DNA of 64,000 nt from Promethearchaeota archaeon (GTDB taxonomy: Archaea; Asgardarchaeota; Lokiarchaeia; Sigyniarchaeales; SOKP01), in contig JAHPZA010000003.1 of NCBI GenBank assembly GCA_019058445.1, positions 64,001 through 128,000 of the forward strand, read 5' to 3'. The notes under the pieces are model-generated. The model saw nothing but the letters and a program-made list of their open reading frames with translations. It did not search any database and was not told the origin of the DNA. Position 1 is the first letter of the stretch, and each line of letters begins with the position of its first letter. A program made the translations under genes and the position numbers. Positions 11,018-29,162 of this stretch are shown here, one piece after another.

Positions 11018-11123
11018 TTTTTATTCTTGACTATCTTTATATGAATCTAACAAATCAATTAATGCTCTATTAAAACTATAAAACCGGAATTTAAAAATTT
11101 AAGTAAAAAGAAAATTAGAGATT

Positions 11124-11906: not shown

Positions 11907-12015
11907 AATAATATTAAATACCCGAATTTCTATAAATTTTATATAATTAAACAAAAATAGAAAAAGATTACAAAATTTAATAACCCACAATTTTAATTAT
12001 ATTAACAACATATCA

Positions 12016-12792
12016 ATGGTGAAAAAAGAAGTGGCAATAGATTACGAACAAGCAGTTAAAGATTTAAAAACGGAATCTGATATAAAGTCTGTAGCGGTTA
12101 TTGAAGGAAAATACAAAATCGTATATTCAACGGAAGATTGGGATATAAGTGGAGATATTAAGAAGCTTGTTGGAATTTGGGACTCAATGCATGGAAAGTC
12201 TTTAACGGTTTCTGAAAATAAATATTCAATCCTTCAAGCTACGCCGGAAAGATTAGTGGCAACTTCAATTAAAGGAAAAGGGCATATTTTGGGAGCTAAG
12301 GATGATGAAAGAAAGGTTATCGTTTATGCAAAACCAAAAGGGAATATGCTGACTGCTTATACTGCTGCTGCCAGAGCATTAGAAGCAATGAGCTCGAAAG
12401 AGCCTTATATGGATGAAAAGACAGAATTAGGAAATGTAGAAAAATTTCCTTCGGAATGGGATACTCCAAGATTAAGAGAAGAAATGATGAAAGGTCTCAT
12501 AGAGTTCTTTACAAAAGGCGGAAAACTTGAAAGAGTTGATGAGACTGATTTAAAGCGCAGAGAAAAAGAAAGAGGACAGAGAATGGAAGAATTAAGTAAA
12601 GTATTACATGCATTAGAAATAACCAAGGAAGAAAAAGATAAACTGGTAAGTATCACAATAAAATCGAAATTTGTTACTGATTACATCTATGATGATTTCC
12701 AACTGTTAAGAGTGAAACATAAAATTGAGAAACTCATTGAGAAAGAGTTTCAAGTGCATGATATTGAGACGAGAATTGTGAAAAAAATATAA
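12016..12792 (+). CDS. Asgard profilin domain with ~130-aa C-terminal extension
   Basis: VAVIEG..IVYSTEDWDISGDI...LTVSENKYSILQATPERLVATSIKGKGHIL matches the Loki profilin pattern (recalled) TENWxIS...KY...TxERxxxT.IxGKGH. Confidence 0.75.
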   Translation: MVKKEVAIDYEQAVKDLKTESDIKSVAVIEGKYKIVYSTEDWDISGDIKKLVGIWDSMHGKSLTVSENKYSILQATPERLVATSIKGKGHILGAKDDERKVIVYAKPKGNMLTAYTAAARALEAMSSKEPYMDEKTELGNVEKFPSEWDTPRLREEMMKGLIEFFTKGGKLERVDETDLKRREKERGQRMEELSKVLHALEITKEEKDKLVSITIKSKFVTDYIYDDFQLLRVKHKIEKLIEKEFQVHDIETRIVKKI

Positions 12793-12834
12793 GGTTACTA
12801 GTTTTTAAGTTAAAATTAAAGCCGAAACAGCAGA

Positions 12835-14268
12835 CTATTTTATTTTTTTAAGATTAGCAAAGTCTACAATATGTTTCGGTATTCTATAACTTGGACTTTT
12901 AATTTGAGCGGCACCACTTTCAATAGCTAATCTTGGCATGCCATACAAAATACATGTTTCTTGGGATTCGGCAATTGTTTTTCCTCCGATTCGTTTAATT
13001 GCCTCTAATCCATCGACACCATCCTCTCCCATACCGGTCAGTAAAATTCCCAAGGTTTTTTTTCGAAAGACTTTACAAGCAGAAAAGAATAACACGTCAA
13101 TTGAGGGAATACAATAATGCACTGGGTCACCTGAAAATATGTGGATACAAGGCTTATTATTTTTAACAAAAATTGACATGTGTCTGCCACCTGGTGCAAA
13201 ATAGACAATTCCTGGTTGAAGATACTCTCCTTCAATGCCTACCTTAATATGAATGGGACAAGTCTCATTTAAACTGCTAATGAAAGAATGAATAAATGGA
13301 TCGCTTAAATGTTGGACTACTAAAATTGGACATGAGATATTAGGAGGAATCTCCTTTAATACGGTTTTTAATGTTCGTGGACCGCCTACACTCGCTCCAA
13401 TAACAATTACATTAGATCCTAAATGAACCCCTTTTAATGGGGTTAGATCGGTTCTTTCTAATACTTTATTTCTTTTTATTTCTTTCTTTAAAATAGATTT
13501 TGATTTATGCGTTAAAGGATGAATTGCGTTTTCTGGTTTTTTGACTGAAATTTTTATCGAATGCTTTGCTTTTTCAGCTTTTGTTTCTTTAACTTCTTTT
13601 TGTTTGATTGATTCTTTAATTCCTTCCTTTTGTATCGACTTTTGCGCCTCAACTTTCTTAGTTTTTGGCTTTATTTTAACTTCTGTTGTTTCATTGGATT
13701 TTTTCACGCTGGTCAAGTCTAATTTATTGGTCTCCTCTGTTTCTAGTATAGGTTTTAATTCATTTATGTATTTACCAAATTTAAAAATCTCACTCACTAG
13801 CTCTTGTCGAATATAGGTCTTTTTAATTATGCTATTTTCTTTTTCAAATATTCTTTTAATTTGGGACTTCGAGGCTAGAAGAACTTTAGCAAGCAGTTCT
13901 TCTTTAAACCTTGGTAAATTTTTTGCTCCTAATCCTCCCGGTTTAATTACATAATCAAAGGCTCCCATTAATAACGCTTGGATTGAAGTATCCATAGTTT
14001 GAGGATTAACTGCTGATAAGATAATTGTCGGAGTAGGATTATAGTCCATTATTTTTTTAAAGGCATCAAGACCGTTCATTTCGGGCATAATTAAATCAAG
14101 GATTAATACATCTGGATGATGTTTTTTTACTAAATTTATTGCCTCTACTCCATTTTTTGCATAATCAGCAATTTTAATTGTTTCATCAATTGAAAGAATA
14201 TTTGTAATCGATTTTCTTAAAAACTCTGAATCATCAGCGATTATAACGCTTATTGTCTCACTACTCAT
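12835..14268 (-). CDS. cheB: Chemotaxis methylesterase CheB with long Lys-rich linker
   Basis: Receiver domain (ADDS, LDLIMP, KP) and methylesterase triad GASVGG / VQHL / GMGEDG. Confidence 0.92.
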   Translation of the reverse strand: MSSETISVIIADDSEFLRKSITNILSIDETIKIADYAKNGVEAINLVKKHHPDVLILDLIMPEMNGLDAFKKIMDYNPTPTIILSAVNPQTMDTSIQALLMGAFDYVIKPGGLGAKNLPRFKEELLAKVLLASKSQIKRIFEKENSIIKKTYIRQELVSEIFKFGKYINELKPILETEETNKLDLTSVKKSNETTEVKIKPKTKKVEAQKSIQKEGIKESIKQKEVKETKAEKAKHSIKISVKKPENAIHPLTHKSKSILKKEIKRNKVLERTDLTPLKGVHLGSNVIVIGASVGGPRTLKTVLKEIPPNISCPILVVQHLSDPFIHSFISSLNETCPIHIKVGIEGEYLQPGIVYFAPGGRHMSIFVKNNKPCIHIFSGDPVHYCIPSIDVLFFSACKVFRKKTLGILLTGMGEDGVDGLEAIKRIGGKTIAESQETCILYGMPRLAIESGAAQIKSPSYRIPKHIVDFANLKKIK

Positions 14269-14333
14269 ATTTTAGAAAACCTCTTTGTTCTTTATTTTTT
14301 TTCTTAATATTTTGTCCCTTACTTTAATGATAT

Positions 14334-15299
14334 TTATATCCCTAAATTTGATGTTAAACACATAAAAAGTTCATCTAAACCCTCTCCTGTCAAAGCGGAA
14401 GTTTCAAAAAATTGAAAGTTATATCGGTCAGCAAATTTGTAGGCATTGCTTCTGATTTCTTCTCTATTCTCTACTTTATCAATTTTATTCCCTACAATTA
14501 TGTAAAGGATCGAAGAATTTTTGATGAAATGGCGGGCTTCTTCAATCCACTCGTTAATCATTCCTAATGTTTCTTGTTTAGAATAATCGAATACAATTAG
14601 AACTGCCTTTGAGTGGTTATAGAAATGCCTACGTATCTTTGCAAAACTTTTTTTGCCTCCTAAGTCAAACAGTGAAAATGTTATTTTCATATCTTTCAAA
14701 ATTTGAAGTTCTTTTTCAATTATTGAAAGACCTATAGTAGGTTTATATTGCTCAATAAATTCACCATTAACAAACATGTTTGCTATGGCACTTTTGCCCA
14801 CATTATCTGGTCCAATTAGTACAATCTTATTTATTGAATTTTTACTATTAGAATGGTTGTTGGATTCTAGTTCTACGTTTCCGCCATTAACAAGATTAGG
14901 AAGTTTCGTCGAAATTTTTCGATCATTTAGAATTTGTGATGCTTTTTCTGCCACAATGTATGAATACGGGATAAATTTGTCAATATCAGAGTAAGCATCT
15001 GCTACTAATACAAATAATGCTCTAGTTGGTCCAACATTTCCCAGTTCTAAATAGAACAAACGATAGTCATTAGTATCAAATGTACCACTGCCATAAGATG
15101 TATCGGCGAATCTTTTAATTTTATTAAGAGCCCCTTCAAGGATGCTCATAATCGCTCCAATAATCTCTTCATTAAAATTTTTTACTGATTGGCGAGCAAT
15201 AATTAATCCATCCAAATCTACAATTAACGTAGCAATTAATTCATCAACTTTTTTCAAAAAATTGGCTAACAATTCTTCTAATAGCGTGACGCGCAACAT
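14334..15299 (-). CDS. Roadblock/LC7 domain fused to Rab-like small GTPase
   Basis: Roadblock N-terminus ATLIVDLDGLIIA...IIGAIMS. GTPase motifs G1 GPDNVGKS, YKPTIG, DLGGK, NKID, ETSAL. Confidence 0.88.
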   Translation of the reverse strand: MLRVTLLEELLANFLKKVDELIATLIVDLDGLIIARQSVKNFNEEIIGAIMSILEGALNKIKRFADTSYGSGTFDTNDYRLFYLELGNVGPTRALFVLVADAYSDIDKFIPYSYIVAEKASQILNDRKISTKLPNLVNGGNVELESNNHSNSKNSINKIVLIGPDNVGKSAIANMFVNGEFIEQYKPTIGLSIIEKELQILKDMKITFSLFDLGGKKSFAKIRRHFYNHSKAVLIVFDYSKQETLGMINEWIEEARHFIKNSSILYIIVGNKIDKVENREEIRSNAYKFADRYNFQFFETSALTGEGLDELFMCLTSNLGI

Positions 15300-15428
15300 T
15301 TTTAATTTATTCTAACTTTAAGTTAGAGAATTTATACTCAAAATCTTAATATTTTAGCTATTTTTAAACTCAATGATAAACAAAAATTTTTATAGCGATA
15401 GAACAACAATAAATTCCTTTCAAATCTA

Positions 15429-16610
15429 TTAAGCTCTAGAAAATTTTGACGCATATCTTACTATATAATCCTTAATGTGGTAATTTGGACTTATTATTTC
15501 GGCAAAACCATATTTGGCTGCAAATTTTGGCATTCCGTAGAGAATAGCTGTTTCTTCAGATTCTGCAATTGTAACCCCTCCCGATTTTTGAATTGCCCCC
15601 AATCCTTGAACTCCATCCTTACCCATTCCAGTTAACAAAATACCTAAAGTATTTTTATTGAATGCTTTTGCTGCCGAATAGAATAACACATCAATAGAAG
15701 GTTTACAAAAATTAACCGGTTCCCCATTAAAGATTCTGATTGTTGGAGATCTTAAGTTCCTATTTTTTACCATAATTTCCATGTGTTTGTCCCCTGGAGC
15801 AATATAAATATATCCAGATTTAATTATTTCACCATTATTTGGAATTTTTACTTTTAACTTGCACAAATCATTCATTGATTCAGCAAATTGATTCATAAAA
15901 AAGAGATTTAGATGTTGTACAATGAATATAGATCCTGGAAAATTTGAGGGAATTCCCTTCAAGATTGATTTTAAGGTTTTGGGACCACCTACACTGGATC
16001 CCATGACTATGATGCATGGTACCTCAGATCCACTCTTAACTTGCGGGATTTTAGATGCTTTTTCTTGAACAACTACTTTTAAATCATGATGATTTGTGAT
16101 TTTAATAGGGACTATTTTCTCTGAATTTAATTTTTTCTCTAAAATTTCTTTTTTAACCTTAATTTCTGAAGCTAAAAGCACTTTATTTATTAACTGCGTT
16201 TTAAATTTAGGAAATTCCTCTTTCCATACTCCAGTAGGTTTAATAATATAATCAAAAGCTCCCAATAGGAGGGTTTGAATCGAATCATTTAATGTTTTTG
16301 ACGCTTCAGAGGGATTGAGAGCAGAAAAAACGATTGTTGGCACGGGATAATGCTTTGAAAGATATCGATATAACGTAATTCCATCCATTTTAGGCATAAT
16401 TAGATCTAAAAGCAAAACATCTGGATTTGTTTTTTCAATTTTTTCGATGGCTTCTTCTCCATTTCTTGCGATATCAACTACTTCGATTTGAGGGTGTTCC
16501 GAAAGCATATCTGATAATATTTTTCTCTGATAAGAAGAGTCTTCTGCTATGAGGACTTTGACCTTCTTATGTGAACTATCCTCAGTTTTCATGTTCTTGA
16601 GAGCACTCAT
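15429..16610 (-). CDS. cheB: Chemotaxis methylesterase CheB
   Basis: Receiver domain (AEDS, LDLIMP, KP) and triad GSSVGG / VQHL / GMGKDG. Confidence 0.92.
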   Translation of the reverse strand: MSALKNMKTEDSSHKKVKVLIAEDSSYQRKILSDMLSEHPQIEVVDIARNGEEAIEKIEKTNPDVLLLDLIMPKMDGITLYRYLSKHYPVPTIVFSALNPSEASKTLNDSIQTLLLGAFDYIIKPTGVWKEEFPKFKTQLINKVLLASEIKVKKEILEKKLNSEKIVPIKITNHHDLKVVVQEKASKIPQVKSGSEVPCIIVMGSSVGGPKTLKSILKGIPSNFPGSIFIVQHLNLFFMNQFAESMNDLCKLKVKIPNNGEIIKSGYIYIAPGDKHMEIMVKNRNLRSPTIRIFNGEPVNFCKPSIDVLFYSAAKAFNKNTLGILLTGMGKDGVQGLGAIQKSGGVTIAESEETAILYGMPKFAAKYGFAEIISPNYHIKDYIVRYASKFSRA

Positions 16611-16677
16611 AAATGATTCTACTTTAGTCCTTTGAATACCTTAAAATTGATTAAAATAAATAGTTTTAAAACTATTT

Positions 16678-17067
16678 CTAGGCTTTGGCCATAGTGTGCC
16701 TTGTTAGAATTTGTTCCACTTGGTCCTTCTTGAAGGGTTTACGAATAAAATCCTTTGCGCCTAGTTGAGTCGCTTCAAGTATTAAATCCTGTTGGCCAAT
16801 TGCAGACACTACAATAATTGATGCTGTTTTATCAAAGTTTAGAATACCTTTAATGGCATCTAGTCCTCCTAGCTGTGGCATGATAAGATCCATAGTAACC
16901 AAATCTGGCTTTAATTTTTTATATAGTTCAATTGCTTCATTTCCATTTTTCGCTTCTGCAATGACTTCAGCAAAATTAGTGCCGTTTATAATGTTCTTAA
17001 GCATGGCTCTAGTGAATCCAGCATCATCAACAATTAATACCTTTTTTTTGTGATTCTCTTTAGACAT
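16678..17067 (-). CDS. cheY: Chemotaxis response regulator CheY
   Basis: Stand-alone receiver: VDDA, TMDLIMP, VSA, KPF. Confidence 0.9.
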   Translation of the reverse strand: MSKENHKKKVLIVDDAGFTRAMLKNIINGTNFAEVIAEAKNGNEAIELYKKLKPDLVTMDLIMPQLGGLDAIKGILNFDKTASIIVVSAIGQQDLILEATQLGAKDFIRKPFKKDQVEQILTRHTMAKA

Positions 17068-17159
17068 GTTAACATTCCCCTAATTTTTCATAAAATTTAT
17101 GATAGGTTAATTTGAAAAATTTTCGTACTTTTTGTGAGTTTAACTAAGACGTACTTTTA

Positions 17160-17208
17160 TATAATTTTGATAAAGTAAGTATTTAAAAAATTAATGAAAT
17201 GCAAAATA
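17160..17208 (-). promoter_or_regulatory. Duplicated promoter-like element upstream of cheY-cheB-GTPase-cheB
   Basis: 47/49 identical to 29012-29060. Contains TTTAAATA, a TATA-box-like sequence, on the minus strand. Confidence 0.7.
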
Positions 17209-17313
17209 GTTGCCCAGAATAACACAAAAAATTTGAAAAAAATTTGATTTAAATATTAATTCTATTTTGGATTTTGAGAGTTTAAGATCAGTAATCTTAT
17301 CTAAATTACTTAT

Positions 17314-17964
17314 CTATTTAATTTTAAGAAGGTCAAATATTATTTTAATAGTATCTATACTTGGAATAAAACAAATTATCCCATCTATACTTAATTCTTC
17401 AATTTTTATATTTGTGTTAATTATTATTATAGAATCTGTGAGCTCTGAATAATTTGCAGCCACTGAATTACATATTGCGCCAATTGAATCTAAAGCTAAA
17501 ACAGGAACATTAGGAATTAGTTTGATGCCCATTAAATTTGCTAATGAGCTTGCATAATGTCCCGCTAATATATTGCCGATTTCAGAAATGATACTCCTCG
17601 TCAAATCATCTAATTCCTCGATTTCGTGTATATCATCAATAGATATCTCAGAAATCGAATTGATCATGTTAATCATGGATTCTTTAGTAAAGATTTGTAG
17701 TACAGTTAAGTTATGCTTTCCTGTTATATTTGAACAAATTCCAAAGATATTAGTTTCTTGATCGGGAAAAATATTATTTAACTCCCAAAAAGGAATGATT
17801 TTAATGCCAGTTAAAGAAACTTCAACTCGCTTATTAACAAGTTCTGATAACGCAACAACAGCATTACCGGACCCAATATTTCCTAATTCTTTTAACGAAT
17901 CTAACTGCTCAGGACTCAATTTTATTGAGTTATTTACCCCTTCAAGACCTTCATTTAATTTCAT
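17314..17964 (-). CDS. cheC: CheC-family CheY-P phosphatase
   Basis: Two E-x-x-N motifs: KELGNIGSGNA and SEIGNILAGHY. Confidence 0.9.
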   Translation of the reverse strand: MKLNEGLEGVNNSIKLSPEQLDSLKELGNIGSGNAVVALSELVNKRVEVSLTGIKIIPFWELNNIFPDQETNIFGICSNITGKHNLTVLQIFTKESMINMINSISEISIDDIHEIEELDDLTRSIISEIGNILAGHYASSLANLMGIKLIPNVPVLALDSIGAICNSVAANYSELTDSIIIINTNIKIEELSIDGIICFIPSIDTIKIIFDLLKIK

Positions 17965-17984
17965 ATTCTTTAAACCTCTAAATT

Positions 17985-18530
17985 TTAATTAATTTTTTTA
18001 GTAATTGTATCTTTGCTTGTTTTTATTTGGATTATATCATCGCCTATATTATATATGATTGTTCTCCCTTTTTTTCCTCCAACTTCCTCAAATAGAATTT
18101 TAATATTTAATGAGCTTAATACTTCTCTTGCGATTTTAATATTTTGCTTACCGATACAGTTAAATTCATTATCAAAAATAGTTGCACCTCCAATCATAAC
18201 TGCTTTTAAATTCTTTAATTTTGCTCCGCTCTGTATCATTTTGTCCACTAAATCTTTTATAGAAGTATTTACAAATTTATGAGGTAATTTTATCTGGGAA
18301 GCTTCTTTATTTTCAGAGGTCGGAAGTAAGACATGGGACATAGCATGTATATGATTTATCGAATCTGTTAACAGAATTGCGATACATGAGCCCAATCCAT
18401 ATATAGAAATCGTTTTGTAGTTTTTATATTTCTTACTCGAGTTTACTAATGCATAATGTGCGATGGGTAAAAAAATCTCTCCGTTTTGATTAGGTTTGAT
18501 TATGCGATCAATTCGTTCTTCATAAACCAT
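17985..18530 (-). CDS. cheD: Chemoreceptor glutamine deamidase CheD
   Basis: GLGSCIA (catalytic Cys), SHVLLP (His), IGGATIF, IGKQNI, EVGGKKGRTI. Confidence 0.9.
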   Translation of the reverse strand: MVYEERIDRIIKPNQNGEIFLPIAHYALVNSSKKYKNYKTISIYGLGSCIAILLTDSINHIHAMSHVLLPTSENKEASQIKLPHKFVNTSIKDLVDKMIQSGAKLKNLKAVMIGGATIFDNEFNCIGKQNIKIAREVLSSLNIKILFEEVGGKKGRTIIYNIGDDIIQIKTSKDTITKKIN

Positions 18531-18544
18531 AATGAATTAACTTT

Positions 18545-19444
18545 TTAACTTTTAATATAAAAATGATTCCTTCCATCAAGTAACTTGAGATTGAGATTGG
18601 AATTTAAAAGAGTTTCAGTTTTTCCAAGGACCAATAATCCGCCATTCGTTAATTTATCTTTTAAAATCTTTAATAGTTTCTCTCTAAAACCTCTATTTAT
18701 ATATATCAATAAATATCTACAAAAAATAACATCATACTTTTGAGATCTTTGATGTCCCTTTGTGACATCCTCTATGATAAAATCTACTTTTTTTTTAATA
18801 TCATTGCAAATTAAATATTTGGGTCCTAATCGATCATGAAATTTAGTAAAATATGCTAATTTATATCTCTCAGGAGTTTCTTTTAAAGCCTCTTCACTAT
18901 AGAATCCCATTCGTGCCATTTTAATAATATTACTATCAACATCAGAAGCAACTAGATCATAGGTAGGAAAATCATTGATTTCTTCCCTTAATTGCTCAAG
19001 CATCATAGCTAGAGAATAAGGTTCCTCGCCTGAGGCACATGCACATGACCAAATTTTCAACCCCTCCTCTTTATAAGCATAATCTCTGCGAATTTTGTCA
19101 TAAATAGAAAGCTTAGAGACATCAATATTATCAGAATAATTTTGAAATTTTCCATTTTTACAAGCAAGAATAATCTGACGAAGTTTTTCATAAATTTCGA
19201 TGTTTCTAAAGAAATAAGTATAATTTATAGTAAACCTGTCCAAAAACAATTCAATTTCTTGGGGATTTGATGAAATATAATCAAGATAACTTTGGTCGGT
19301 TGTCAAACCGACTCGAATCATTCGAGCTTTAATCCTTCTTTCAAGAAAATTCCTTCGATAACATTCAAACTCTATACCGGTTGAATCTTTCAATTTTTCT
19401 ATCAAATTGTTGATGGATTTAGGGTTAAATGCTATACTTTCCAT
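18545..19444 (-). CDS. cheR: Chemotaxis methyltransferase CheR
   Basis: TYFFRN, IWSCACASGEEPYSLAM, YDVIFCRYLLIY, GGLLVLGKTE. Confidence 0.92.
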   Translation of the reverse strand: MESIAFNPKSINNLIEKLKDSTGIEFECYRRNFLERRIKARMIRVGLTTDQSYLDYISSNPQEIELFLDRFTINYTYFFRNIEIYEKLRQIILACKNGKFQNYSDNIDVSKLSIYDKIRRDYAYKEEGLKIWSCACASGEEPYSLAMMLEQLREEINDFPTYDLVASDVDSNIIKMARMGFYSEEALKETPERYKLAYFTKFHDRLGPKYLICNDIKKKVDFIIEDVTKGHQRSQKYDVIFCRYLLIYINRGFREKLLKILKDKLTNGGLLVLGKTETLLNSNLNLKLLDGRNHFYIKS

Positions 19445-19467
19445 TGAATTCTCTTCCTTTAAGAATT

Positions 19468-20037
19468 TTAAAGATTTTTCAATAACTCCTCGAGTTGGCT
19501 AATCCTTTTATCTATATGTTGAATTGAATATTTCACATGAGAATGAATTTCTTTAATTTCATTTACGATATGTGAAATTTTAATATGAACACTTCTGTTT
19601 ATTTGGGGTTTTAAAGTGCTCATAGCTTTTGATTGTTGAACTTGAAGTAATTGAGAACCTAAATTATTTGAAGCGGTTGTTTTTGCGATCTGAGCTGAGT
19701 TGTTTTTTTGTCTAGATTCGCCAGGAAAACCATATCTTTCAGGACCTCTCTTGATTTCGCTTGATATATATTGAAATTCAATAGGTTCTCTTCCCTCTTT
19801 TATAACCTCATATTTAAAACCATTAAATTCTTTATTATTTTTGAGTTTGCCTGCCCAATTTGCGGCAATATATCTATGAAATAAACGAGATTGTAACCCT
19901 GCCCAAATCCAAATTAAATTTAATGGTTTATCTACAAACAAATATACACTATTAGTTTCAAAGAGCTTATCGGGATTTTTTGTGAGATTTTCACCGTTGA
20001 TTTTATATACATAATTAAAGTATTCGTTTTGTTGCAT
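19468..20037 (-). CDS. Single gelsolin-like domain protein with C-terminal coiled coil
   Basis: Gelsolin repeat signature SVYLFVD...IWIWAG...A..L...VIKEGREPIEF, then a Q/S/N-rich linker and a heptad-like tail. Confidence 0.8.
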   Translation of the reverse strand: MQQNEYFNYVYKINGENLTKNPDKLFETNSVYLFVDKPLNLIWIWAGLQSRLFHRYIAANWAGKLKNNKEFNGFKYEVIKEGREPIEFQYISSEIKRGPERYGFPGESRQKNNSAQIAKTTASNNLGSQLLQVQQSKAMSTLKPQINRSVHIKISHIVNEIKEIHSHVKYSIQHIDKRISQLEELLKNL

Positions 20038-20114
20038 ATCCCTTAGCCATTTTGATATTTTTTGTAAAAATTTGGATTATGTGGGAATTAAAAAAATATT
20101 CCCCATGTTTTTTT

Positions 20115-22025
20115 TTAAACTTCGTAAAATGTGGAGAGTGTATCTAATAATTCTTGTAAAGTCTCGAGTTCTGGAATAAAGAGAAAAGTGCCCTGAATCT
20201 CAAATTCTTTAATAATAACATTTGTAGTGATTACTAAAGAAAGTTCTTTCATCAATCCAATTTCTTCATTTAGGATTTTAAACAATTTCATGCCGGTATC
20301 TAAACTTATGTCCGGCGGCTCAGTCATCAATCTTATACTTAATAAATTCCCTAAAGCTGTAGTATAATGACTGGCTAATATATGACCGAGTTCTTTCATT
20401 GCATCAATATAAATTTCAGGAAAATCATTGATAGATTTCACGCTTCTTAAATCTATTTTTGCTTTTCCGTTATCACCTATTATGATAGAAGTCAAATTAG
20501 TGATGTCTGGTACTTTAAATAAAGTTAGAACTGTTGCTCTGGTTTTTCCTTGAACTCCACTCCAGGAGACAAATAATTTCATATTTTTCTTGCTCATTTT
20601 TTTGGCAAACTGATCAATAGAAACGACCTCTACTGAGGGAATATTGATATCTACTCGCTTATTTATCATTTTTGCTAAGGCGTTAGCAGCATTACCAGCA
20701 CCAATGTTTCCAACTTCTCTTAAAGCATCTTTCTGAATATCTGTAAGTTCTAAGTCAATGAATTTATCGAGCGCTCCTCCCGGTTTAACAGGTTCAACCT
20801 TATCATAGATATCTAATTTATTGAATAGACTTTTTATAGCTTTTAAGTCTGGTATATAGAAAAAGATACCATTCATCTGTAAATCAGTAACTTTAATTGC
20901 TGTTTTTATAATTACCACATATTCAGATTGCTCTTGAAGCTCTTTAGCTAAGAAATTTCCTAAATTGCCCGCATTGCTCATAGCAAATTCAGGAACATCA
21001 AAAATCATTTTTGTATTTAATAAATCTGCTAATGCTGAAGCATAATGTCCCGCGAGAATATTTCCAAATTCCGTGACTGTAGAAATAGCAAAATCATCTA
21101 AATCTTTTTTAGTTTTTACTTTATCCGGATTAATCTTTGACTTTTTGCCCGCTAGATCTGCTATTAATTTCATTAATGGAGTTAATTCAAACACTTGAAG
21201 TATTGTAGATAATGAAGGCTTTCTTATATGCGAAAATATTCCACAGACAACTTCTGACTCATTACCAAATTGACGAGGTAACTGTTCTAGAGAAATAATA
21301 CCAACATCCGTAAGATCTACATCTATTCGTTTATTTATTAATCTTGAAAGAGCTGTGACTGCATTTCCACTTCCAATGTTCCCTACCTCCTGTAGTGTAT
21401 CTTTTTGCATTTTGGTAAGCTTCACTATATCGTGAACTATCGGCTGATGTGGTTTATCACTTGAAGGGATTATAATATCTTCAGTTCTTATTCTAGCAGG
21501 AAGCTTTTCTGGGATATAACGCTCTGGTAATTGATTGATATCTTGAGAATTTCTCATTAATTGTTGATCAGGAGCTAATGGAACTATTAATGACTCAAGA
21601 TCTAAAACAACATATGTTTCCTCATCTAAGACTCCTACAGATCTAATGTATTTCATATCAATTTCAGTCTTGATAATCGCAGATTTATTCTGAAAAATTG
21701 AAATTGGGACTTCTCTCATGCTAATAACTGAATCCACATAGAGTGCAATATTAATATCCTGTAATTCTAATAAAACTAAGCGAGTATTTTTTGATAACTT
21801 TAAATGATCTCCATTTGAGTGAATCCTTTGTCCCATGGCTATTATTGTATAAATCTCCCCTCTAACATCAGCAATTCCCACAATTGATCTTTCTGCTAAA
21901 GGGATTGGAATAATTAATTCTGGAACATAAATTTCTCTTACATCTGTTATTTCAAGAAAATATATTCGATCATCTACATTAATTTCTACTAATTTTATTG
22001 TTTGTACATATTCGTTTTCTAACAT
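20115..22025 (-). CDS. CheW-CheC-CheC fusion protein
   Basis: N-terminal CheW (IPIP...IVGIADVRGEIYTII...ALYVDSV). Two CheC modules follow, with motifs EVGN, EFGN, EVGN and ELGH. Confidence 0.85.
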   Translation of the reverse strand: MLENEYVQTIKLVEINVDDRIYFLEITDVREIYVPELIIPIPLAERSIVGIADVRGEIYTIIAMGQRIHSNGDHLKLSKNTRLVLLELQDINIALYVDSVISMREVPISIFQNKSAIIKTEIDMKYIRSVGVLDEETYVVLDLESLIVPLAPDQQLMRNSQDINQLPERYIPEKLPARIRTEDIIIPSSDKPHQPIVHDIVKLTKMQKDTLQEVGNIGSGNAVTALSRLINKRIDVDLTDVGIISLEQLPRQFGNESEVVCGIFSHIRKPSLSTILQVFELTPLMKLIADLAGKKSKINPDKVKTKKDLDDFAISTVTEFGNILAGHYASALADLLNTKMIFDVPEFAMSNAGNLGNFLAKELQEQSEYVVIIKTAIKVTDLQMNGIFFYIPDLKAIKSLFNKLDIYDKVEPVKPGGALDKFIDLELTDIQKDALREVGNIGAGNAANALAKMINKRVDINIPSVEVVSIDQFAKKMSKKNMKLFVSWSGVQGKTRATVLTLFKVPDITNLTSIIIGDNGKAKIDLRSVKSINDFPEIYIDAMKELGHILASHYTTALGNLLSIRLMTEPPDISLDTGMKLFKILNEEIGLMKELSLVITTNVIIKEFEIQGTFLFIPELETLQELLDTLSTFYEV

Positions 22026-22050
22026 AGTAAATACTCTACCTCTTTAATTT

Positions 22051-22887
22051 TCAAATGTCATTTTTAATGATAATTCCTTTCCAAATGAGTTCTTTTTCCC
22101 TTTCTTCTTTAGAATGTTCAGAAAAAAAATCGGGTTGTTTAAATATTGAAATTTGACCCCCATTCGAGAATTCATACACATAATCTAGCATATCATCCAT
22201 ACTTGTGAAGTTAAAGCCTGCTATGCTCAATTCGGAATTGTTAACTATTAATAAATCCTCACTATTGAATAGGGTATATTCATCGTTAATTTCTAACCAT
22301 AATTCAGGAATTATCTCTTTTTTATCAATTGTAATTATATCATCCAGGGGTATATCCCGATACGTTTTATTTGTAGCAAAAATTATCTGGTCTGGAATAG
22401 TTTTAAGGAGTTTAGCAGTTTTATTAATCCCCTCTATTGCTTGAGTATATTTTTGTGAATCGAAGACATCATAGCACAAAACAAAAATAACTCCGCCTCC
22501 ATCTAATTTAGCTATTAAATCTACCACGTTTTCTGCATCTGAAGTTGGATTAATTTGTATATTCTCTACAAAAATATCACGAATATACTTAAAATATTGA
22601 TAAAATCTCCATTTCACTGCAGATTTATCATTTATCTCTCGACTAATGAAAGTCTGATAGAGATTTTGTAACTGCTTCTCTGATAGTTTTGAATAATCAG
22701 CGCTCGTGTCATAGTCATCCCCAATATTAACAAATTCATTTGATTTATTTGATTTTGATTTTTTCGCAACTTCATCTACATAAATCTTAAGTTCCTCTAT
22801 AGTAAATCCAGGCGCAATATATTCTACTAAATAAAGCAATCTCTTTTTGGATTTATCCTGTAATAAATCATAATATTGTATTGTCAT
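22051..22887 (-). CDS. Hypothetical acidic protein within the che operon
   Basis: 278-aa ORF, 25-31 bp from its neighbours. VDLIAK...IFVLC weakly resembles a restriction-endonuclease-like fold. Confidence 0.7.
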   Translation of the reverse strand: MTIQYYDLLQDKSKKRLLYLVEYIAPGFTIEELKIYVDEVAKKSKSNKSNEFVNIGDDYDTSADYSKLSEKQLQNLYQTFISREINDKSAVKWRFYQYFKYIRDIFVENIQINPTSDAENVVDLIAKLDGGGVIFVLCYDVFDSQKYTQAIEGINKTAKLLKTIPDQIIFATNKTYRDIPLDDIITIDKKEIIPELWLEINDEYTLFNSEDLLIVNNSELSIAGFNFTSMDDMLDYVYEFSNGGQISIFKQPDFFSEHSKEEREKELIWKGIIIKNDI

Positions 22888-22918
22888 TTTTTTTCTCCTT
22901 TATTTATTTAATATACAT

Positions 22919-24940
22919 TTAACCAAAGAAATATGATTCTAAATCAGAAATACTCATTTTTTCTTCTCCTTTATTTTTCAGATAGTACATAATTTCTTTT
23001 TCTTGATATGCTAACACATTTTTAATAGAGAATGAGATTATATACTCATTTTCTTCTTTAGATTTTGAAACTTTATTTTCGGTATTTGAAGATACTAATT
23101 CAAAGGTATCTGGTATTGTGTCTGTTATTAATACATCCTTTATTTCCACATTCGAATTATTTCTCATTGTAATACTTATCGCAAATTCATCTGCATCACG
23201 TCCAGGAAAGATTTCTTTTCCAATTGTCAGATTACGACGCTTATGTGTGACCTTTATCTTAGGTTTTTTCATGTCTGATAAGATATTTTTCACTACATAA
23301 TATTCAGGTATTTCGATTTCTGCCAGATTCTTGTTTTTTATATAATAACAGCTGACTTCTAACGGAAATTCATATGCTTTATTATAATCTGGAGTCATTG
23401 CCCGAATTGGATATGTCAGTTCTAATTGTCCATTTATCCCTATTAAATCCCTTATTTGATTATTCGTTAAATTTATAATTAATTCTAAAGCATGTTCCTT
23501 AGATGGATCATCATCTTGAGGTGTAATTTTGAGGGTAATATCATCTATTTTCATGTCTCCTGAAGAGTTTTTAAGCTTAATTTGTGCAAGATCAATAGGA
23601 GGCTTAAAATCTTCTGGAATTGTCTCATTAATTATAATACCTTTAATAGGAACAATGCCCGTATTATGAATAATAATTTTATTAAATAATTCTGATTCTT
23701 CAAATGACTTGATTTCTTTTTGAGAGATATCTTTTTCAAAATAAAATCCTATCACTTCAATTGTTGTATCTTCCACTTGTAAGCTTACATTAGTGTTTCT
23801 CTCAATAGCATAATCCAATGAATAAGTTAGCTTTCTTGAAAATTTAGGTTCATTCTCCTCATGAAGTTCCCATTTATTAGTATTAAATGTTTCACCAGGT
23901 CGTAAAATAACTTTATTTCCTTCCTTAGTCATATCTAAATCTACATATTTTGTAGATCTCGTTTTATCGGTAATTAAAACGTTTTTCAATTGCATAGTAA
24001 AATCACTATGATTCGCAAAGATAAATGAGCATTCCCATTGATTTGGTTCTGTTTCTTTCTCTTCCACATCTATGACATGCTTTGCGTGGGAATATGCTGA
24101 GAATTCTTTAATATCAGTTTCTGAGACAATATAATTTTCTAATTCATATGTCATAGTAATAATCCCCGTCCTAATCTGCTTATTTTTTTCTGGAATTATT
24201 TTAGCTATAATAATTACCTGTCTCTGTTCTCCAGGTTTTAATTCTCCTAAATTCCAAGATAATTTATTGTTTTTAATTTTTATATCTGCTTTCGAGTCGC
24301 TTGAACATTCTAAATCATAAAAATCCTTAGGAATTTCTTTTTCAGCATGAATATTTTTAATGATATAATTTGATTGATTATGTAAATCAATTAAAAATTT
24401 AACTGTATTTTCTTGACCAAATAACAAAATATATCGATCATCTTGACCAATCATAGGAATTTCTGTAAAATCCTTTACTGCTTTTATATCCTTATTAAGA
24501 ATCTCTATTGATTCATAAATCTTAAGAGGATCTGATAGATCATCTAAACTACTAATGTTGTATCTAATATTCTTATTAGTTTGTGGTTCAAATATCCCAA
24601 GACTCAACTCATTTTGAATATCTAAATTGGTATATTGAGAGCCTAAGATTTGAATGCGAGTATCCCACATTCGATCTTTATATGAATTATTTATTATTGA
24701 TACATTGCCATAGCCATTAGCAGATTTTCTTTGCATAGTATGATCATACTGAAATTCTAAAGTTTCCTCATTAACTATTGTAATTTCAGATATACTTTCT
24801 GCTGTTTTTGAAATTTGAACCTCATTTGTTTCATATTTTCCTAAGTGCTTTGTTTCTTCCATAAATTTGAGAGGTACTCCCAAAAAATTTGGACCGATTT
24901 TGGTCCTTAATTCAGTTTGATTAATGCATTTAAATCCCAT
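22919..24940 (-). CDS. Cytoplasmic multi-beta-sandwich (DUF11/Ig-like) protein
   Basis: Repeated N(T/S)G/S..I.(D/E)TIP..F modules and WNLGELKPGE. No signal peptide or TM segment. Confidence 0.6.
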   Translation of the reverse strand: MGFKCINQTELRTKIGPNFLGVPLKFMEETKHLGKYETNEVQISKTAESISEITIVNEETLEFQYDHTMQRKSANGYGNVSIINNSYKDRMWDTRIQILGSQYTNLDIQNELSLGIFEPQTNKNIRYNISSLDDLSDPLKIYESIEILNKDIKAVKDFTEIPMIGQDDRYILLFGQENTVKFLIDLHNQSNYIIKNIHAEKEIPKDFYDLECSSDSKADIKIKNNKLSWNLGELKPGEQRQVIIIAKIIPEKNKQIRTGIITMTYELENYIVSETDIKEFSAYSHAKHVIDVEEKETEPNQWECSFIFANHSDFTMQLKNVLITDKTRSTKYVDLDMTKEGNKVILRPGETFNTNKWELHEENEPKFSRKLTYSLDYAIERNTNVSLQVEDTTIEVIGFYFEKDISQKEIKSFEESELFNKIIIHNTGIVPIKGIIINETIPEDFKPPIDLAQIKLKNSSGDMKIDDITLKITPQDDDPSKEHALELIINLTNNQIRDLIGINGQLELTYPIRAMTPDYNKAYEFPLEVSCYYIKNKNLAEIEIPEYYVVKNILSDMKKPKIKVTHKRRNLTIGKEIFPGRDADEFAISITMRNNSNVEIKDVLITDTIPDTFELVSSNTENKVSKSKEENEYIISFSIKNVLAYQEKEIMYYLKNKGEEKMSISDLESYFFG

Positions 24941-24998
24941 GTTTATTTTGCTCCATTTGATTTATCTTTTATTTTTTATTACATATTTTTGACTAATT

Positions 24999-27089
24999 TT
25001 AATAAATATCATTTAATTGTGAGTATTGCAATTCGTTTAATTTAGAGTTTATAATATTAAAAACATCAAGTATTAAACAAATAGAACCGTCGCTCAGGAT
25101 TGTTGAGCCTGAAATATAGTTGGTAATAGAATATTCTGATTGAAATGGTTTCACCACCGCATCAATTTGTTCAAGAAGCTCATCTGCAATTAATATTGCT
25201 GATGAATTCTCATCTTTCTGACATAAAACTGCCAATTTAGTGTGTGAATTTTTCTTTACTTTACCATTACTATTTAGTTTCAAAAGTTTATCCAATTTAA
25301 TTATGGGTAGAAGACTTGAGTTGATTTTATAATATTTTGACTCTCCAACATACTCCAGAGAATCGGGACTATAAAAATAAATTTGTTTTATGTTTTCCGT
25401 AGGAATCGCGAAGATATCACCTGCGATTTTTAATAATTGTGCCTTAATAATTGCCCTACTAAAGGGTACAATTACTGAGAATTTCGTTCCGATTCCTTTT
25501 TCTGTGAAAATTTGAAAAGAACCTCCAAGTTTTTTAACCTTTTCATCAACAATAGCTAAACCCATTCCTCGTCCAGAGATCATATCTGCATCCGTAAGGG
25601 TTGAAAAGCCAGGCATCAAAAGAAATTTATTCAAAACTTCATTTGAAAGAAGTTCTACCTCGTTGGGAGTGTAATATCCCTTAGCAATGATATTTTCTCT
25701 TATTTTATCATAATTAATCCCTTTTCCATCATCAGAGATTTCAATATAGATTAATCCTGCTCTTCGATATGTCTTTAGTTTTAAGACTCCTGTTTCATTC
25801 TTATTTTTAGAAATCCTTTCTTTTGGTGATTCAATTCCATGATAAATTGCATTTCTAAGAAGATGGACTAATGGTGAATTAAGTTCTTCTAAAATTTTTC
25901 TGTCCATCTCCACATTAATGCCTTCTAGGATGAATTTTATTTTTTTACCTGTTTCTACCGCAACATCACGTACCAATCTTTTATATTTCCTAAAAGTTGA
26001 TTCTACTCTGACAAGTTTTAAGTCAAAAATGATTTCTTGAATATCAAGGAGGGATTTATCAATATTATCAAAAAGGATACTTATCTCCTGATCTTGTCTC
26101 TCCTTGAGTATTTGACTAATTTGATTTTTAATTATGATTAATTCTCCAAAGTAATCCATTAATTTTTCCAATGTATCAATATCAACTTTTATTCTTGAAA
26201 TTGTCGCTCTTTCATTCTGGAAATTGTCTATTATCTTAGACACCGGTTCAATTTCTCCATCAATGATTTCTTCTTCGTAAGTGTTTTCTTTTTCACTTTC
26301 CAGGCTACTTTCAAATGTGTTCTCATCCTGCATCTTTATACTAAAGTTAGTCAGAAGAGCTTCAAATTTGTCATGATTTAACTCTGTTATAACTTTATTA
26401 TCAATTTCAAGGATTTCTTCCAAAATTTGAGAAATTTGGGCTGAATTTTTTTGAGTAATATAGTAAATTTCAAAATCTCTATCAAAATTTCCAATTTCTA
26501 ATAATCGAGGTTCAGGATTACTATAACAAATTTGACCAACTTCATTGAGCGCTCTAAAAATAATAAATAAGCGTACTTTTTTAAATACACAAGTGGCCTG
26601 TAATCTGAGATATATCTTATAATATTTATTATTTTTAACGCTTAGTGTTTGTTTAATTTTATCCTGAGGAATTGGTTTAATAAAGGTAATTTCATATTCA
26701 TTCTCGAAATCATCAAAGGTATCTTTAATTTCGTCTAAAAATTTAACATCAATATCAGTATTATCCCCTTTTTTAAGTCTGCTCACTACTGTTCGAAGAA
26801 CATCAAGACTTTCAAAAAAGATTGAAGTAAATTTACTGATTTTTTCGGTTGAAACTTTATTATCTTTAGCCTTGTTCAAAAAATCTTCTAAAAAATGGCA
26901 GAATTTTGAAACGTTTTCAAAACCTGCCATGGCAGTCAATCCTTTTAAAGTATGGAATGCGAAAAAAAGTTCTTGAACTGGTTTTTTATTGCGAGGATTT
27001 TCTTCTAGCTTGAGAACTTCATCTTCTACTTTTTGGATAAGATCTTCGGATTCATTTATAAAAAGCTGAATATCTTCTTTAGATGCCAT
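24999..27089 (-). CDS. cheA: Chemotaxis histidine kinase CheA
   Basis: P1 FHTLKG, P2 domain, P3 LMDYFGELII, P4 HLLRNA/DDGKG/PGFST/SGRGMG, P5 SGSTILSDGSICLILD. Confidence 0.95.
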   Translation of the reverse strand: MASKEDIQLFINESEDLIQKVEDEVLKLEENPRNKKPVQELFFAFHTLKGLTAMAGFENVSKFCHFLEDFLNKAKDNKVSTEKISKFTSIFFESLDVLRTVVSRLKKGDNTDIDVKFLDEIKDTFDDFENEYEITFIKPIPQDKIKQTLSVKNNKYYKIYLRLQATCVFKKVRLFIIFRALNEVGQICYSNPEPRLLEIGNFDRDFEIYYITQKNSAQISQILEEILEIDNKVITELNHDKFEALLTNFSIKMQDENTFESSLESEKENTYEEEIIDGEIEPVSKIIDNFQNERATISRIKVDIDTLEKLMDYFGELIIIKNQISQILKERQDQEISILFDNIDKSLLDIQEIIFDLKLVRVESTFRKYKRLVRDVAVETGKKIKFILEGINVEMDRKILEELNSPLVHLLRNAIYHGIESPKERISKNKNETGVLKLKTYRRAGLIYIEISDDGKGINYDKIRENIIAKGYYTPNEVELLSNEVLNKFLLMPGFSTLTDADMISGRGMGLAIVDEKVKKLGGSFQIFTEKGIGTKFSVIVPFSRAIIKAQLLKIAGDIFAIPTENIKQIYFYSPDSLEYVGESKYYKINSSLLPIIKLDKLLKLNSNGKVKKNSHTKLAVLCQKDENSSAILIADELLEQIDAVVKPFQSEYSITNYISGSTILSDGSICLILDVFNIINSKLNELQYSQLNDIY

Positions 27090-27121
27090 ATAATCCCCTT
27101 TATCATTCTTTTTCCATATAT

Positions 27122-27511
27122 TTATTTCTTATCTTTAATTTTTAGAATACGCTCCATAACTTCTACAATCTGTTCAGTTTTGAAAGGCTTTTGAATAAAA
27201 TCTTTAGCTCCTTTTTTTGCCGCTTCAAGTACTAAAGCTTCTTGACCTAAAGCAGATACAACCACGATGATCGCCTTTGGATCAACCTTTAAAAGATCTT
27301 CAATAGTTTCAATGCCTCCCTTTTCAGGCATTACAAGATCCATCGTGACCATATCTGGTTTTAATTTTTTGTATAGGGCAATCGCTTCTTTTCCATTTTT
27401 CGCTTCACCGACGACTTCACCGTAATTAGTTTTTGAAATTATATTCTTCAGAATATTTCGTGTAAATTGGGCGTCATCAACTACCAATATTTTACTTTTA
27501 TTATTTGACAT
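27122..27511 (-). CDS. cheY: Chemotaxis response regulator CheY
   Basis: VDDA, TMDLVMP, VSALGQ, KPF. Adjacent to cheA. Confidence 0.92.
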   Translation of the reverse strand: MSNNKSKILVVDDAQFTRNILKNIISKTNYGEVVGEAKNGKEAIALYKKLKPDMVTMDLVMPEKGGIETIEDLLKVDPKAIIVVVSALGQEALVLEAAKKGAKDFIQKPFKTEQIVEVMERILKIKDKK

Positions 27512-27538
27512 TTTTCTAACTCCTATTTTTGGTTAATA

Positions 27539-28063
27539 TTATTTTGTTATTGTTTGTTCTTTTTCTATAATGGTTTGTTCTACTTCAGTTAATATTCTAC
27601 TCAAATCGAGTAAAATTCTAGGTCTATCTTTAAACTTTATAATTCCTTTGATATATTCAATTCCAACACTAGTTTGGAATATTGGACTTAAACCTTCAAC
27701 TAAATCAATATCAATATTGGCTATATCCAAAATACGATCAACTAAAAATCCTGTGTTCACATTATTAACACTAACAATGATGATGTATTTTTTCTCTGAA
27801 CTATATTTTTCTTCATTTTTCTTAGAATCTTGTATTCTATATTCGTTCAGATTTAATTTCTTGCTCAAATTTACAATATGTATAATTTCTCCTCTGTAAT
27901 TATAAATTCCATCAATAAAATCATAACTTTGAGGCAATTTTCTAATTTGGCCTGCCAATATTATTTCTTTAGTATCATAAATATTAATAGCAAATTGTTC
28001 GCCTTCTGTTTCAAATAAAATAACTGAAAGCTTATTTCCTTGAGTATAATATTCTTCTTGCAT
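27539..28063 (-). CDS. cheW: Chemotaxis coupling protein CheW
   Basis: FAINI..TKEII, LPQSYDFIDGIYNYRGEII, GFLVDRI, IKGIIK...ILLDL. Confidence 0.9.
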   Translation of the reverse strand: MQEEYYTQGNKLSVILFETEGEQFAINIYDTKEIILAGQIRKLPQSYDFIDGIYNYRGEIIHIVNLSKKLNLNEYRIQDSKKNEEKYSSEKKYIIIVSVNNVNTGFLVDRILDIANIDIDLVEGLSPIFQTSVGIEYIKGIIKFKDRPRILLDLSRILTEVEQTIIEKEQTITK

Positions 28064-28121
28064 ATTTTTTTCTCCTAATCTTTTTTTTACGCATTACAAA
28101 CTTTTTTTTATCTAAATTTTC

Positions 28122-28949
28122 TTACAAATTAAAATATCTGTTAATATTTTTCTCAAATTCGTAAAATGCCGTAATATCTCCATTAAAATTTTCAAGATGG
28201 GTTTTATATTTCTCCAGAAATTCATCAGCCATAAGATACATATATCTTTTAATAAGCGGAGTTATCTTTTCAACTAAGAAAGCAAAAATTACATTTTTCT
28301 TAGTAATCGTGTAAAATAGCTGATTTCCGAAATTTATCTCTTTTAATTTCCCCCCTGTCTCTTTACCGATGACAAATTGTGAAAATGAAAAAAGTGCTGA
28401 AATAAAACCTCCTATTTGAACTTCTCCATCAATAATGTCAGTCCGTTTTCCCATAATTTTTGTAAAAAGTGGACATCCAGCAGTATCAATAATAAAAATA
28501 CCAATTATTCCCTCTATTACAGGTATTTCGATTGAGTTTTTAATAGTATTCTTAATCTCATCGATAGTATGATTATCAGTACAATATTTAATAATACTCT
28601 TAGAGTGTAAATATAATTCAGAATATTGGAGAGTACTTTCTTTTTCATAAAGATAAATTAGAATTAGTTTCTCTAACTCTTTTTTATTCTTGAAAAAGTT
28701 AAGAAATACAGAGAAATCATCTAAAGGAATAATGGAATTTCCACTATCTTTTTTGATTATTTCCATCTTGAAAAGATGTAATATATTTTGTATCATGGGC
28801 ATTCCAATACCAATTTGGTAAAGTACTTCAGAACTAAAATCTTCTGACTCAATGTTTTTGAAAGTAATTTTGATCAAACCAATGCCTAGCACTTCCAACA
28901 TTCTTGGATTATTAACACGTCTGTCCATGCTTATCATCGAGACTACCAA
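28122..28949 (-). CDS. Longin-domain protein, first gene of the che operon; start uncertain
   Basis: C-terminal longin pattern IFIIDTAGCPLF...IGGFISALFSFS...LKEINFG...FAFLV...FNGDITAF. Confidence 0.75.
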   Translation of the reverse strand: MVVSMISMDRRVNNPRMLEVLGIGLIKITFKNIESEDFSSEVLYQIGIGMPMIQNILHLFKMEIIKKDSGNSIIPLDDFSVFLNFFKNKKELEKLILIYLYEKESTLQYSELYLHSKSIIKYCTDNHTIDEIKNTIKNSIEIPVIEGIIGIFIIDTAGCPLFTKIMGKRTDIIDGEVQIGGFISALFSFSQFVIGKETGGKLKEINFGNQLFYTITKKNVIFAFLVEKITPLIKRYMYLMADEFLEKYKTHLENFNGDITAFYEFEKNINRYFNL

Positions 28950-29011
28950 ATTAGCTTTCTATAAATATATCCCCTAAATATACAATAATTCATTTATTGA
29001 TACTTATATTT

Positions 29012-29060
29012 TATAATCTTGATAAAGTAAGTATTTAAAAAATTAATGAAATACAAAATA
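29012..29060 (-). promoter_or_regulatory. Duplicated promoter-like element upstream of the longin-cheW-cheY-cheA operon
   Basis: 47/49 identical to 17160-17208, including a 34-bp perfect core. Confidence 0.7.
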
Positions 29061-29162
29061 TTACGCTTTAACGATACAAAAAACTCTGAAAAAAAATAAT
29101 TTAAATATAAAACGTTTTCAATAGGATTTTAAAAATTTGAGAGACACGACAAAATAATGATT

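Follow-up and report, generated by a model that had tools for sequence, protein, structure and literature searches.

What a chemotaxis pathway acts on in an archaeon in which no archaellum is recognized is the question raised by a gene cluster in the genome of a Promethearchaeota archaeon (Lokiarchaeia, Sigyniarchaeales, SOKP01; assembly GCA_019058445.1). The cluster lies in a stretch of 64,000 nucleotides (nt) of contig JAHPZA010000003.1 (positions 64,001 to 128,000 of the forward strand), which was analyzed as a whole and is hereinafter called the window; the coordinates given below are those of the window unless another locus is named. The open reading frame map of the window contains a run of 15 co-oriented genes on the minus strand (12835-28937), in agreement with the original prediction, made from the letters alone, of 15 minus-strand genes with tight gaps; the intergenic gaps are 14-77 bp, apart from two wider ones that precede cheY2 (246 bp) and the gene for a Roadblock-Ras fusion protein (129 bp). 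The run encodes a full set of chemotaxis (Che) proteins, namely CheA, two CheW domains, two CheY, two CheB, CheR, CheD, and CheC, and interspersed with these genes are five others, coding for a double-longin protein, a 673-amino acid (aa) DUF11 protein, a 278-aa orphan, a gelsolin-domain protein and the Roadblock-Ras fusion. The cluster is a putative chemosensory operon in two units of a Loki-type Asgard archaeon, with unit 1 starting with the double-longin gene and ending with cheC, and unit 2 comprising the genes from cheY2 onward. In the papers that we searched, on Asgard gelsolins, GTPases and Roadblock proteins, on crawling and on comparisons between genomes, we found no description of a che operon with embedded genes for a gelsolin, a longin protein or a GTPase.

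Conservation of the accessory genes

The gelsolin, longin, DUF11, orphan and Roadblock-Ras genes are very probably functional parts of the Che system. We searched 400 genomes of the phylum for CheA, fetched 40 loci around the matches and mapped all proteins of the window onto these loci; given that related genomes are not independent, counts are reported in place of a statistical test. Orthologous CheA proteins (48-91% identity) were found in two neighboring families and, within the family of the window, in 44 of its 134 other genomes. Around them, the order double-longin, cheW, cheY, cheA, DUF11, orphan, cheW/C/C, gelsolin is kept, with 36-60% identity between the accessory proteins, in the genera g11, g12, g13, g5, g4, and g7 besides the genus of the window and in the families f4 and f7. 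The DUF11 gene adjoins cheA at every one of the 24 orthologous loci, the orphan gene keeps its position at 22 of 22, the double-longin gene is found upstream of cheW at 20 of 23 assessable loci, and the gelsolin gene is in place at 19 of 21. Because this order is conserved across genera, the arrangement goes beyond chance; the recurrence of the che-gelsolin-longin order across genera, which the original prediction had named as a check of its claim, identifies the eukaryote-type genes as true parts of the cluster.

The phyletic distribution of the accessory genes follows that of CheA. The orphan is present, always in a single copy, in 47 of the 400 Asgard genomes, all of them CheA-positive. Orthologues of the gelsolin-domain protein (>135 bits) are encoded in 39 genomes, again all CheA-positive (39/45 CheA-positive and 0/~90 CheA-negative genomes of the family), and the family genomes that lack CheA have at most weaker gelsolin paralogues (<=71 bits). 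Of 28 well-assembled genomes with CheA, 21 encode an orthologue of the Roadblock-Ras fusion (>=52% identity), versus none of 30 CheA-negative ones; the gene lies within the cluster in four genera, and in g13 comes immediately after the gelsolin gene. The tie to CheA is looser for the double-longin protein, paralogues of which are common elsewhere in the genomes. The distribution of the cluster is patchy even inside genera (for example, 25 of the 54 genomes in g11), which shows that accessory and Che genes come and go together as a block. In a genome assembled into a single contig (G188), the cluster has come apart into two loci separated by 1.1 Mb (L029 and L052), where the gelsolin gene is still found beside cheW/C/C and the Roadblock-Ras gene still between cheC and cheB2. 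The same genome has only a fragment of cheW and no orthologue of the double-longin protein, and its Che system may be decaying.

Accessory proteins and the Che core

The DUF11 protein and the orphan are the most widely conserved partners of this type of Che system, a point that the original prediction missed. No signal peptide or membrane helix was found in any of the accessory proteins. The DUF11 protein (22919-24940; Pfam DUF11, E 4e-10) is a predicted cytoplasmic beta-sandwich protein of 673 aa with a maximum hydropathy of 1.15, which the Atlas groups with Asgard DUF11 proteins, and its gene is present also in distant che clusters. In several genera (L018, L020-L024 and L032), an extra 0.9-1.7 kb separates the parts of the gene that match residues 1-155 and 168-673, so that the number of beta-sandwich domains varies.

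The orphan (22051-22887) has no Pfam, NCBIfam or significant PDB sequence match, and no clear Foldseek match against the PDB. Its AlphaFold model (mean predicted local distance difference test, pLDDT, 81) includes a restriction endonuclease-like core at residues 87-201, with weak matches to PD-(D/E)xK-fold proteins (VIA Z 8.0) and, in the Atlas, to Mrr/NucS-type proteins (TM ~0.4). Within this core, D123 is invariant, and the strand that follows reads VLCYD, without the (D/E)xK of the canonical nuclease motif. The family is small, with only 60 representatives among 1.84 billion proteins. Two distant homologues are also located inside che clusters (L063 and L064), in the order methyl-accepting chemotaxis protein (MCP), cheW, cheY, cheB, cheA, cheD, large DUF11-like, orphan-like, cheW-cheC, cheR; another distant homologue (P0041) is encoded on a 1.4-kb contig and hence has no gene context. 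These distant clusters begin with the MCP gene and end, after cheR, with a gene for an uncharacterized protein of 568-611 aa (14033-15739 in L063 and 13577-15412 in L064).

The remaining accessory proteins are of eukaryote type, and the names gelsolin and longin, as well as profilin for a neighboring gene, which the original prediction had assigned where Pfam gives none, are backed by profile searches, PDB sequence matches and AlphaFold/Foldseek comparisons. The gelsolin-domain protein (19468-20037; 189 aa) has no Pfam or NCBIfam match and begins with a gelsolin domain (approximately residues 10-95), which a variable linker joins to a conserved helix at the C terminus. The single sequence matches the Thorarchaeal gelsolin 7c2f with E 6.7e-5, and a profile built from 17 orthologues finds 7c2f with E 2.2e-7, 2DGel3 with 1.7e-5, and villin and CapG with 9e-5, so that a gelsolin-homology domain is detected by profile search. 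The closest characterized protein, Thorarchaeal 1DGelX, in which a gelsolin domain is combined with a coiled coil, was shown with rabbit actin to have binding, nucleating and severing activities (Akil et al., 2020, PMC7444086). The protein described here resembles 1DGelX in having a single gelsolin domain followed by a helical C-terminal part and in the profile match to the solved Thorarchaeal gelsolin; however, it is a distinct paralogue confined to che clusters, and its activity on actin is predicted.

The double-longin protein (28122-28937) is encoded by the first gene of unit 1, whose start is likely the ATG at 28937, giving 271 aa and placing position 29060 inside its promoter region. It has no Pfam, NCBIfam or significant PDB sequence match, and its sequence profile yields a weak match to Roadblock (E 0.15). 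The AlphaFold model (pLDDT 80, predicted template modeling score 0.78) has two tandem beta-beta-alpha-beta-beta-beta-alpha domains of the longin/Roadblock type; Foldseek matches these to the longin domains of Fuzzy/Inturned, Mon1-Ccz1, Sec22b and VAMP7 with probabilities of 0.99-1.00, and the Atlas to Asgard 'Fuz/Mon1/HPS1 first longin' proteins. Thus, a longin-type fold is present in the predicted structure. The tandem longin-type fold is shared with the multi-longin Rab guanine nucleotide exchange factors (GEFs) Mon1-Ccz1 and Fuzzy-Inturned, which are the best structural matches, whereas the protein described here has two such domains rather than three and no sequence similarity to these GEFs, and its role as a GEF or a GTPase-activating protein is putative. 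At least three genomes retain an orthologue of this protein outside a che cluster: in G226 (L053) and G177 (L054), an orthologue of the che type has as its immediate downstream neighbor what is left of cheB, a C-terminal part, and in G191 (L051), it stands without any che genes. These loci look like scars of the deletion of the whole cluster.

The Roadblock-Ras fusion GTPase (14334-15299; Pfam Ras, E 1.7e-35, and Robl_LC7, E 5e-5) contains the G1, G3, G4, and G5 motifs (GPDNVGKS, DLGG, NKID, and SAL, respectively). The G3 motif reads DLGGK, that is, the catalytic Gln after DxxG is missing.

The Che core, for which all seven components (CheA, CheW, CheY, CheB, CheR, CheC and CheD) match Pfam models above the cut-off, is complete and, judging from the sequence motifs, looks functional, comprising the kinase, couplers, regulators, enzymes of methylation and demethylation, deamidase and phosphatases; the key catalytic motifs, described as intact in the original prediction, are all in place, including the CheA, CheY, CheB, CheR, CheD and CheC-type sites. 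In unit 1, the double-longin gene is followed by those for CheW (27539-28063; Pfam CheW, E 4.5e-27), the main response regulator CheY1 (27122-27511; Pfam Response_reg, E 1.5e-27) and the histidine kinase CheA (24999-27089; Pfam Hpt, P2, H-kinase_dim, HATPase_c and CheW), with H46 within HTLKG and both the G1 and G2 boxes. In CheY1, the orthologues of which are 67-81% identical, D12, D13, D58, and K108 are invariant, the stretch SALGQEALVLEAAKKGAKDFIQKPFK is nearly unchanged across orthologues, and the signaling face as a whole is almost invariant. Downstream of the DUF11 gene and the orphan lies the gene for a CheW-CheC-CheC fusion (20115-22025; Pfam CheW and three CheC stretches) with three E-x-x-N sites; its position next to the orphan gene is conserved, distant clusters included. 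The gelsolin gene is followed by those for the methyltransferase CheR (18545-19444; Pfam CheR and CheR_N, motif CASGEEPYS), CheD (17985-18530; Pfam CheD, E 1e-24, with the Cys and His motifs) and CheC (17314-17964; Pfam CheC, two E-x-x-N sites), the last gene of unit 1. In unit 2, CheY2 (16678-17067; Pfam Response_reg) is 58% identical to CheY1 and was seen in the genus of the window only, with no orthologue at the loci of other genera. It is followed by CheB1 (15429-16610; Pfam, motif GSSVGG), which combines a receiver domain with a methylesterase, and, after the Roadblock-Ras fusion, by CheB2 (12835-14268; Pfam, motif GASVGG), in which a 176-aa insert rich in Lys and Glu separates the receiver from the esterase domain; orthologues of CheB2 exist in relatives.

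Candidate outputs of the pathway

The genome (4.61 Mb in 10 contigs, 92.6% complete) encodes 15 receptors, all outside the cluster, and six actin loci. No match to CheF (PF04283), archaellin (PF01917) or the T2SSF/ArlJ-type platform protein (PF00482) was found in this genome by searches that did detect these families in control genomes. CheF was found in one of the 400 Asgard genomes and in none from the family of the window, and archaellin yielded no match above the cut-off in the family, with only two weak matches among its 134 genomes. The result agrees with the original prediction, which had named a complete archaellum together with CheF elsewhere in the genome among the findings that would tell against it. 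Thus, the system shares with the archaeal Che-CheF-archaellum systems of Halobacterium, Haloferax and Methanococcus a Che core that includes CheC and CheD, multiple receptors and a single-domain CheY messenger. It differs from the Che-CheF-ArlCDE arrangement in that CheF, archaellin and the ArlJ-type platform are undetected, and in that its operon holds the DUF11, orphan, gelsolin, double-longin and Roadblock-Ras genes along with the CheW-CheC-CheC fusion.

Tentatively, we consider that the Che output could run via these lineage-specific partners encoded in the operon, up to the steering of actin-based crawling or protrusion. The Che core serves approximately 15 receptors, and where CheF and the archaellum went undetected, the operon carries dedicated co-inherited partners instead. 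Under this scenario, at least one of these partners would be the target of phosphorylated CheY1; the Ras-like switch without the catalytic Gln would be under the control of the double-longin protein and the Roadblock domain, in the way that MglB controls MglA in the Frz pathway; and the gelsolin-domain protein would couple the signal to Lokiactin filaments. Receptor input would thereby bias protrusion dynamics or actin-dependent crawling. The more specific proposal, that a bacterial-type chemotaxis pathway has been joined to eukaryote-type motility parts, such that phosphorylated CheY controls actin-based crawling or protrusion through a longin-regulated Ras-like switch together with the gelsolin, appears possible but doubtful.

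The nearest working analogue is the Frz-MglA/MglB system of Myxococcus xanthus, in which the Frz pathway acts on a polarity module that consists of the Ras-like MglA and the Roadblock protein MglB (PMC10329633). In both cases, a Che-type kinase and response regulators are found beside a Ras-like GTPase and Roadblock-fold regulators, a genetic tie that is present in the operon described here, and the output, if the scenario outlined above holds, would be polarity and surface movement rather than a rotary motor. The operon departs from the Myxococcus system in several respects: its GTPase and Roadblock domains form a single protein encoded among the che genes, the GTPase belongs to the Ras/Rab type and not to that of MglA, a gelsolin-domain protein accompanies it, and the host is an archaeon whose actin is eukaryote-like. 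Lokiactin-dependent crawling has been demonstrated in 'Ca. Lokiarchaeum ossiferum' in a paper that names no steering pathway and does not mention chemotaxis (PMC13716822). Steering of such crawling by the Che system described here is plausible, a step that we infer.

Several observations weigh against an output to actin. The contact of CheY1 with the accessory proteins is likewise something that we infer, and a structure prediction that paired CheY1 with the orphan plus the gelsolin-domain protein (score 0.00, mark 0.32) gives no answer either way. The match of the gelsolin-domain protein to solved gelsolins is modest (E 2e-7), and actin binding by this paralogue is a prediction. The two proteins most widely associated with this type of Che system, DUF11 and the orphan, are not known to be connected with either actin or GTPases. 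An orthologue of the double-longin protein persists in at least two genomes from which the che cluster was deleted and in a third genome without che genes; the Roadblock-Ras gene is truncated or missing in some clusters (L015 and L030), and no orthologue of it was found in g5. Given that the window contains five more small GTPase genes, adjacency alone means little. A divergent locus resembling those of type IV filaments is present elsewhere in the genome (see below). Finally, L. ossiferum, the species in which crawling was observed, lacks a cluster of this type and has archaellin genes.

The last point deserves a closer comparison. L. ossiferum has approximately 15 receptors and cheA, cheB, cheC, cheD, cheR, cheW, and cheY genes, and receptor arrays were seen in its cells by cryo-tomography (Rodrigues-Oliveira et al., 2022, PMC9834061); these authors describe Che genes together with an archaellum in this organism, as does a recent survey of archaeal filaments. 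It thus resembles the organism studied here as a Lokiarchaeial genome with a Che set and about as many receptors. However, in a single-contig genome that is probably that of L. ossiferum (G138), the CheA proteins are only 31-33% identical to that of the window, the Che set is a classical one that lacks the orphan, the embedded gelsolin and the longin, and archaellin genes are present.

The profilin gene invoked by the original prediction as a component of the system counts against that proposal as well. The gene (12016-12792, plus strand) converges on the cluster, 42 bp from the 3' end of the final gene, cheB2, and encodes a profilin-domain protein with a 130-aa C-terminal extension, which matches the Asgard profilin 5zza with E 1e-10 and 7pbh with 5e-9, the Pfam match being below the cut-off. 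An orthologue lies beside the cluster only in a 91%-identical relative from the same genus (G174), the adjacency is missing at every locus from other genera, and the best homologues in G204 and G249 are encoded on other contigs. The convergent profilin gene is probably a neighbor outside the system. Of the Che-to-cytoskeleton link originally put forward, then, the conserved presence of eukaryote-type genes in the cluster and the failure to detect CheF and archaellin hold up, and the profilin, linked in its own genus only, drops out.

An alternative that we regard as unlikely is that the Che system drives a divergent type IV filament machine encoded elsewhere, with the accessory proteins being adaptors that replace CheF. 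A candidate locus, which the original prediction missed, is located on contig C7 (L065, G000:C7:59000-78900; 8562-12732 and 14756-15454) and encodes a 732-aa FlaI/PilB-like ATPase, a 140-aa protein and a 507-aa polytopic membrane protein, with a prepilin peptidase nearby. The ATPase scores 103 bits with the NCBIfam FlaI model, far under the cut-off of 550, and matches Pfam T2SSE with E 1.7e-14; a second T2SSE match in the genome is the Holliday junction ATPase PINA and was ruled out as a pilus ATPase. The C7-type ATPase is near-universal in the family (22/28 CheA-positive and 28/30 CheA-negative genomes), and a near-universal filament combined with a patchy Che system is the usual pattern for motility versus taxis genes. 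However, no archaellin or pilin is recognized and the membrane protein of the locus has no Pfam T2SSF match; six CheA-positive genomes, the single-contig G188 included, lack a C7-type ATPase; and the locus is unlinked to the che cluster. Occurring with and without Che alike, the ATPase speaks neither for nor against this locus as the output.

Comparably improbable, in our view, is that the role of the accessory proteins lies not in the output but in assembling, tethering or placing the array of chemoreceptors, for instance at a cell pole or on the cytoskeleton. The location of the CheW-CheC-CheC fusion and the DUF11/orphan pair, the most conserved partners, between cheA and the adaptation genes would fit such a role, as would the combination of a GTPase with longin/Roadblock domains, a typical localization switch; in some bacteria, the positioning of arrays by NTPases (ParA-like) that are encoded in che operons is established. 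This explanation, however, leaves the system without an output in a genome with no detected CheF or archaellum, and does not account for the strong conservation of the signaling face of CheY1.

Less probable still is that the pathway does not govern movement but, for example, contact between cells, the trafficking of membranes or development, in the manner of the bacterial 'alternative cellular function' Che systems. Eukaryotic longin domains and Rab/Ras-like GTPases work mainly in membrane traffic, and communication and interaction have been proposed as possible roles of the Che system in L. ossiferum (Rodrigues-Oliveira et al., 2022, PMC9834061). The 15 receptors and the full set of enzymes for methylation, demethylation and deamidation nevertheless argue for movement. 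Among Che classes, many receptors combined with a full adaptation set are typical of taxis and not of single-input pathways. Finally, that eukaryote-type genes, abundant as they are in Asgard genomes, came to lie in the cluster by chance is hardly credible: the five further small GTPase genes in the 64-kb window and the non-conserved adjacency of profilin are compatible with it, but order and orthology are held over several genera, and the gelsolin, orphan and Roadblock-Ras orthologues occur only with CheA, so chance adjacency was rejected for all accessory genes except profilin.

Nothing is known about what directs crawling in Asgard archaea, and many of these archaea carry Che genes without a known output. 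The cluster supplies a short list of co-inherited candidates for the link between sensing and movement in Asgard archaea, and its small GTPase and gelsolin are among the few from Asgard archaea for which a role can be suggested from gene context. If the output to actin through the operon's own partners is real, the system would show how sensing and the actin cytoskeleton were coupled before eukaryotes arose. It would then be a prokaryotic forerunner of, or an analogue to, the Ras- and actin-based chemotaxis of amoeboid cells, found in the archaea most closely related to eukaryotes. Should the link to actin fail, the DUF11 protein and the orphan would still amount to a new layer of adaptors in archaeal chemotaxis, one that takes the place of CheF.

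Upstream repeats and genomic surroundings

The two units of the operon are preceded by promoter-like elements that are copies of each other. A 103-nt direct repeat with 80% identity and a near-identical core with TTTAAATA is located upstream of both the longin gene (29009-29111, minus strand) and cheY2 (17157-17259, minus strand). The repeat is probably a promoter or operator common to both che units, and its presence ahead of both genes fits two co-regulated units.

The cluster is flanked by unrelated housekeeping genes, including those for a Macro domain protein, a NosD-like protein, an M42 peptidase, TBP, a methyltransferase and PPDK. The density of the small GTPases in the window, with the five genes additional to the Roadblock-Ras fusion, is about one gene in 10. 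Four of these encode Rag/Arf-like GTPases (37060-38574, 47903-48850, 49144-49932, and 58435-59838), two of which adjoin each other. The fifth (45267-47747) codes for an 826-aa protein in which an Arf/Ras-like GTPase domain is combined with at least three PAS domains, an architecture that suggests a small GTPase coupled to a sensor. A PAS-HisKA-HATPase sensor kinase (2899-4044) is encoded on the same strand as the che cluster, 9 kb away from it.

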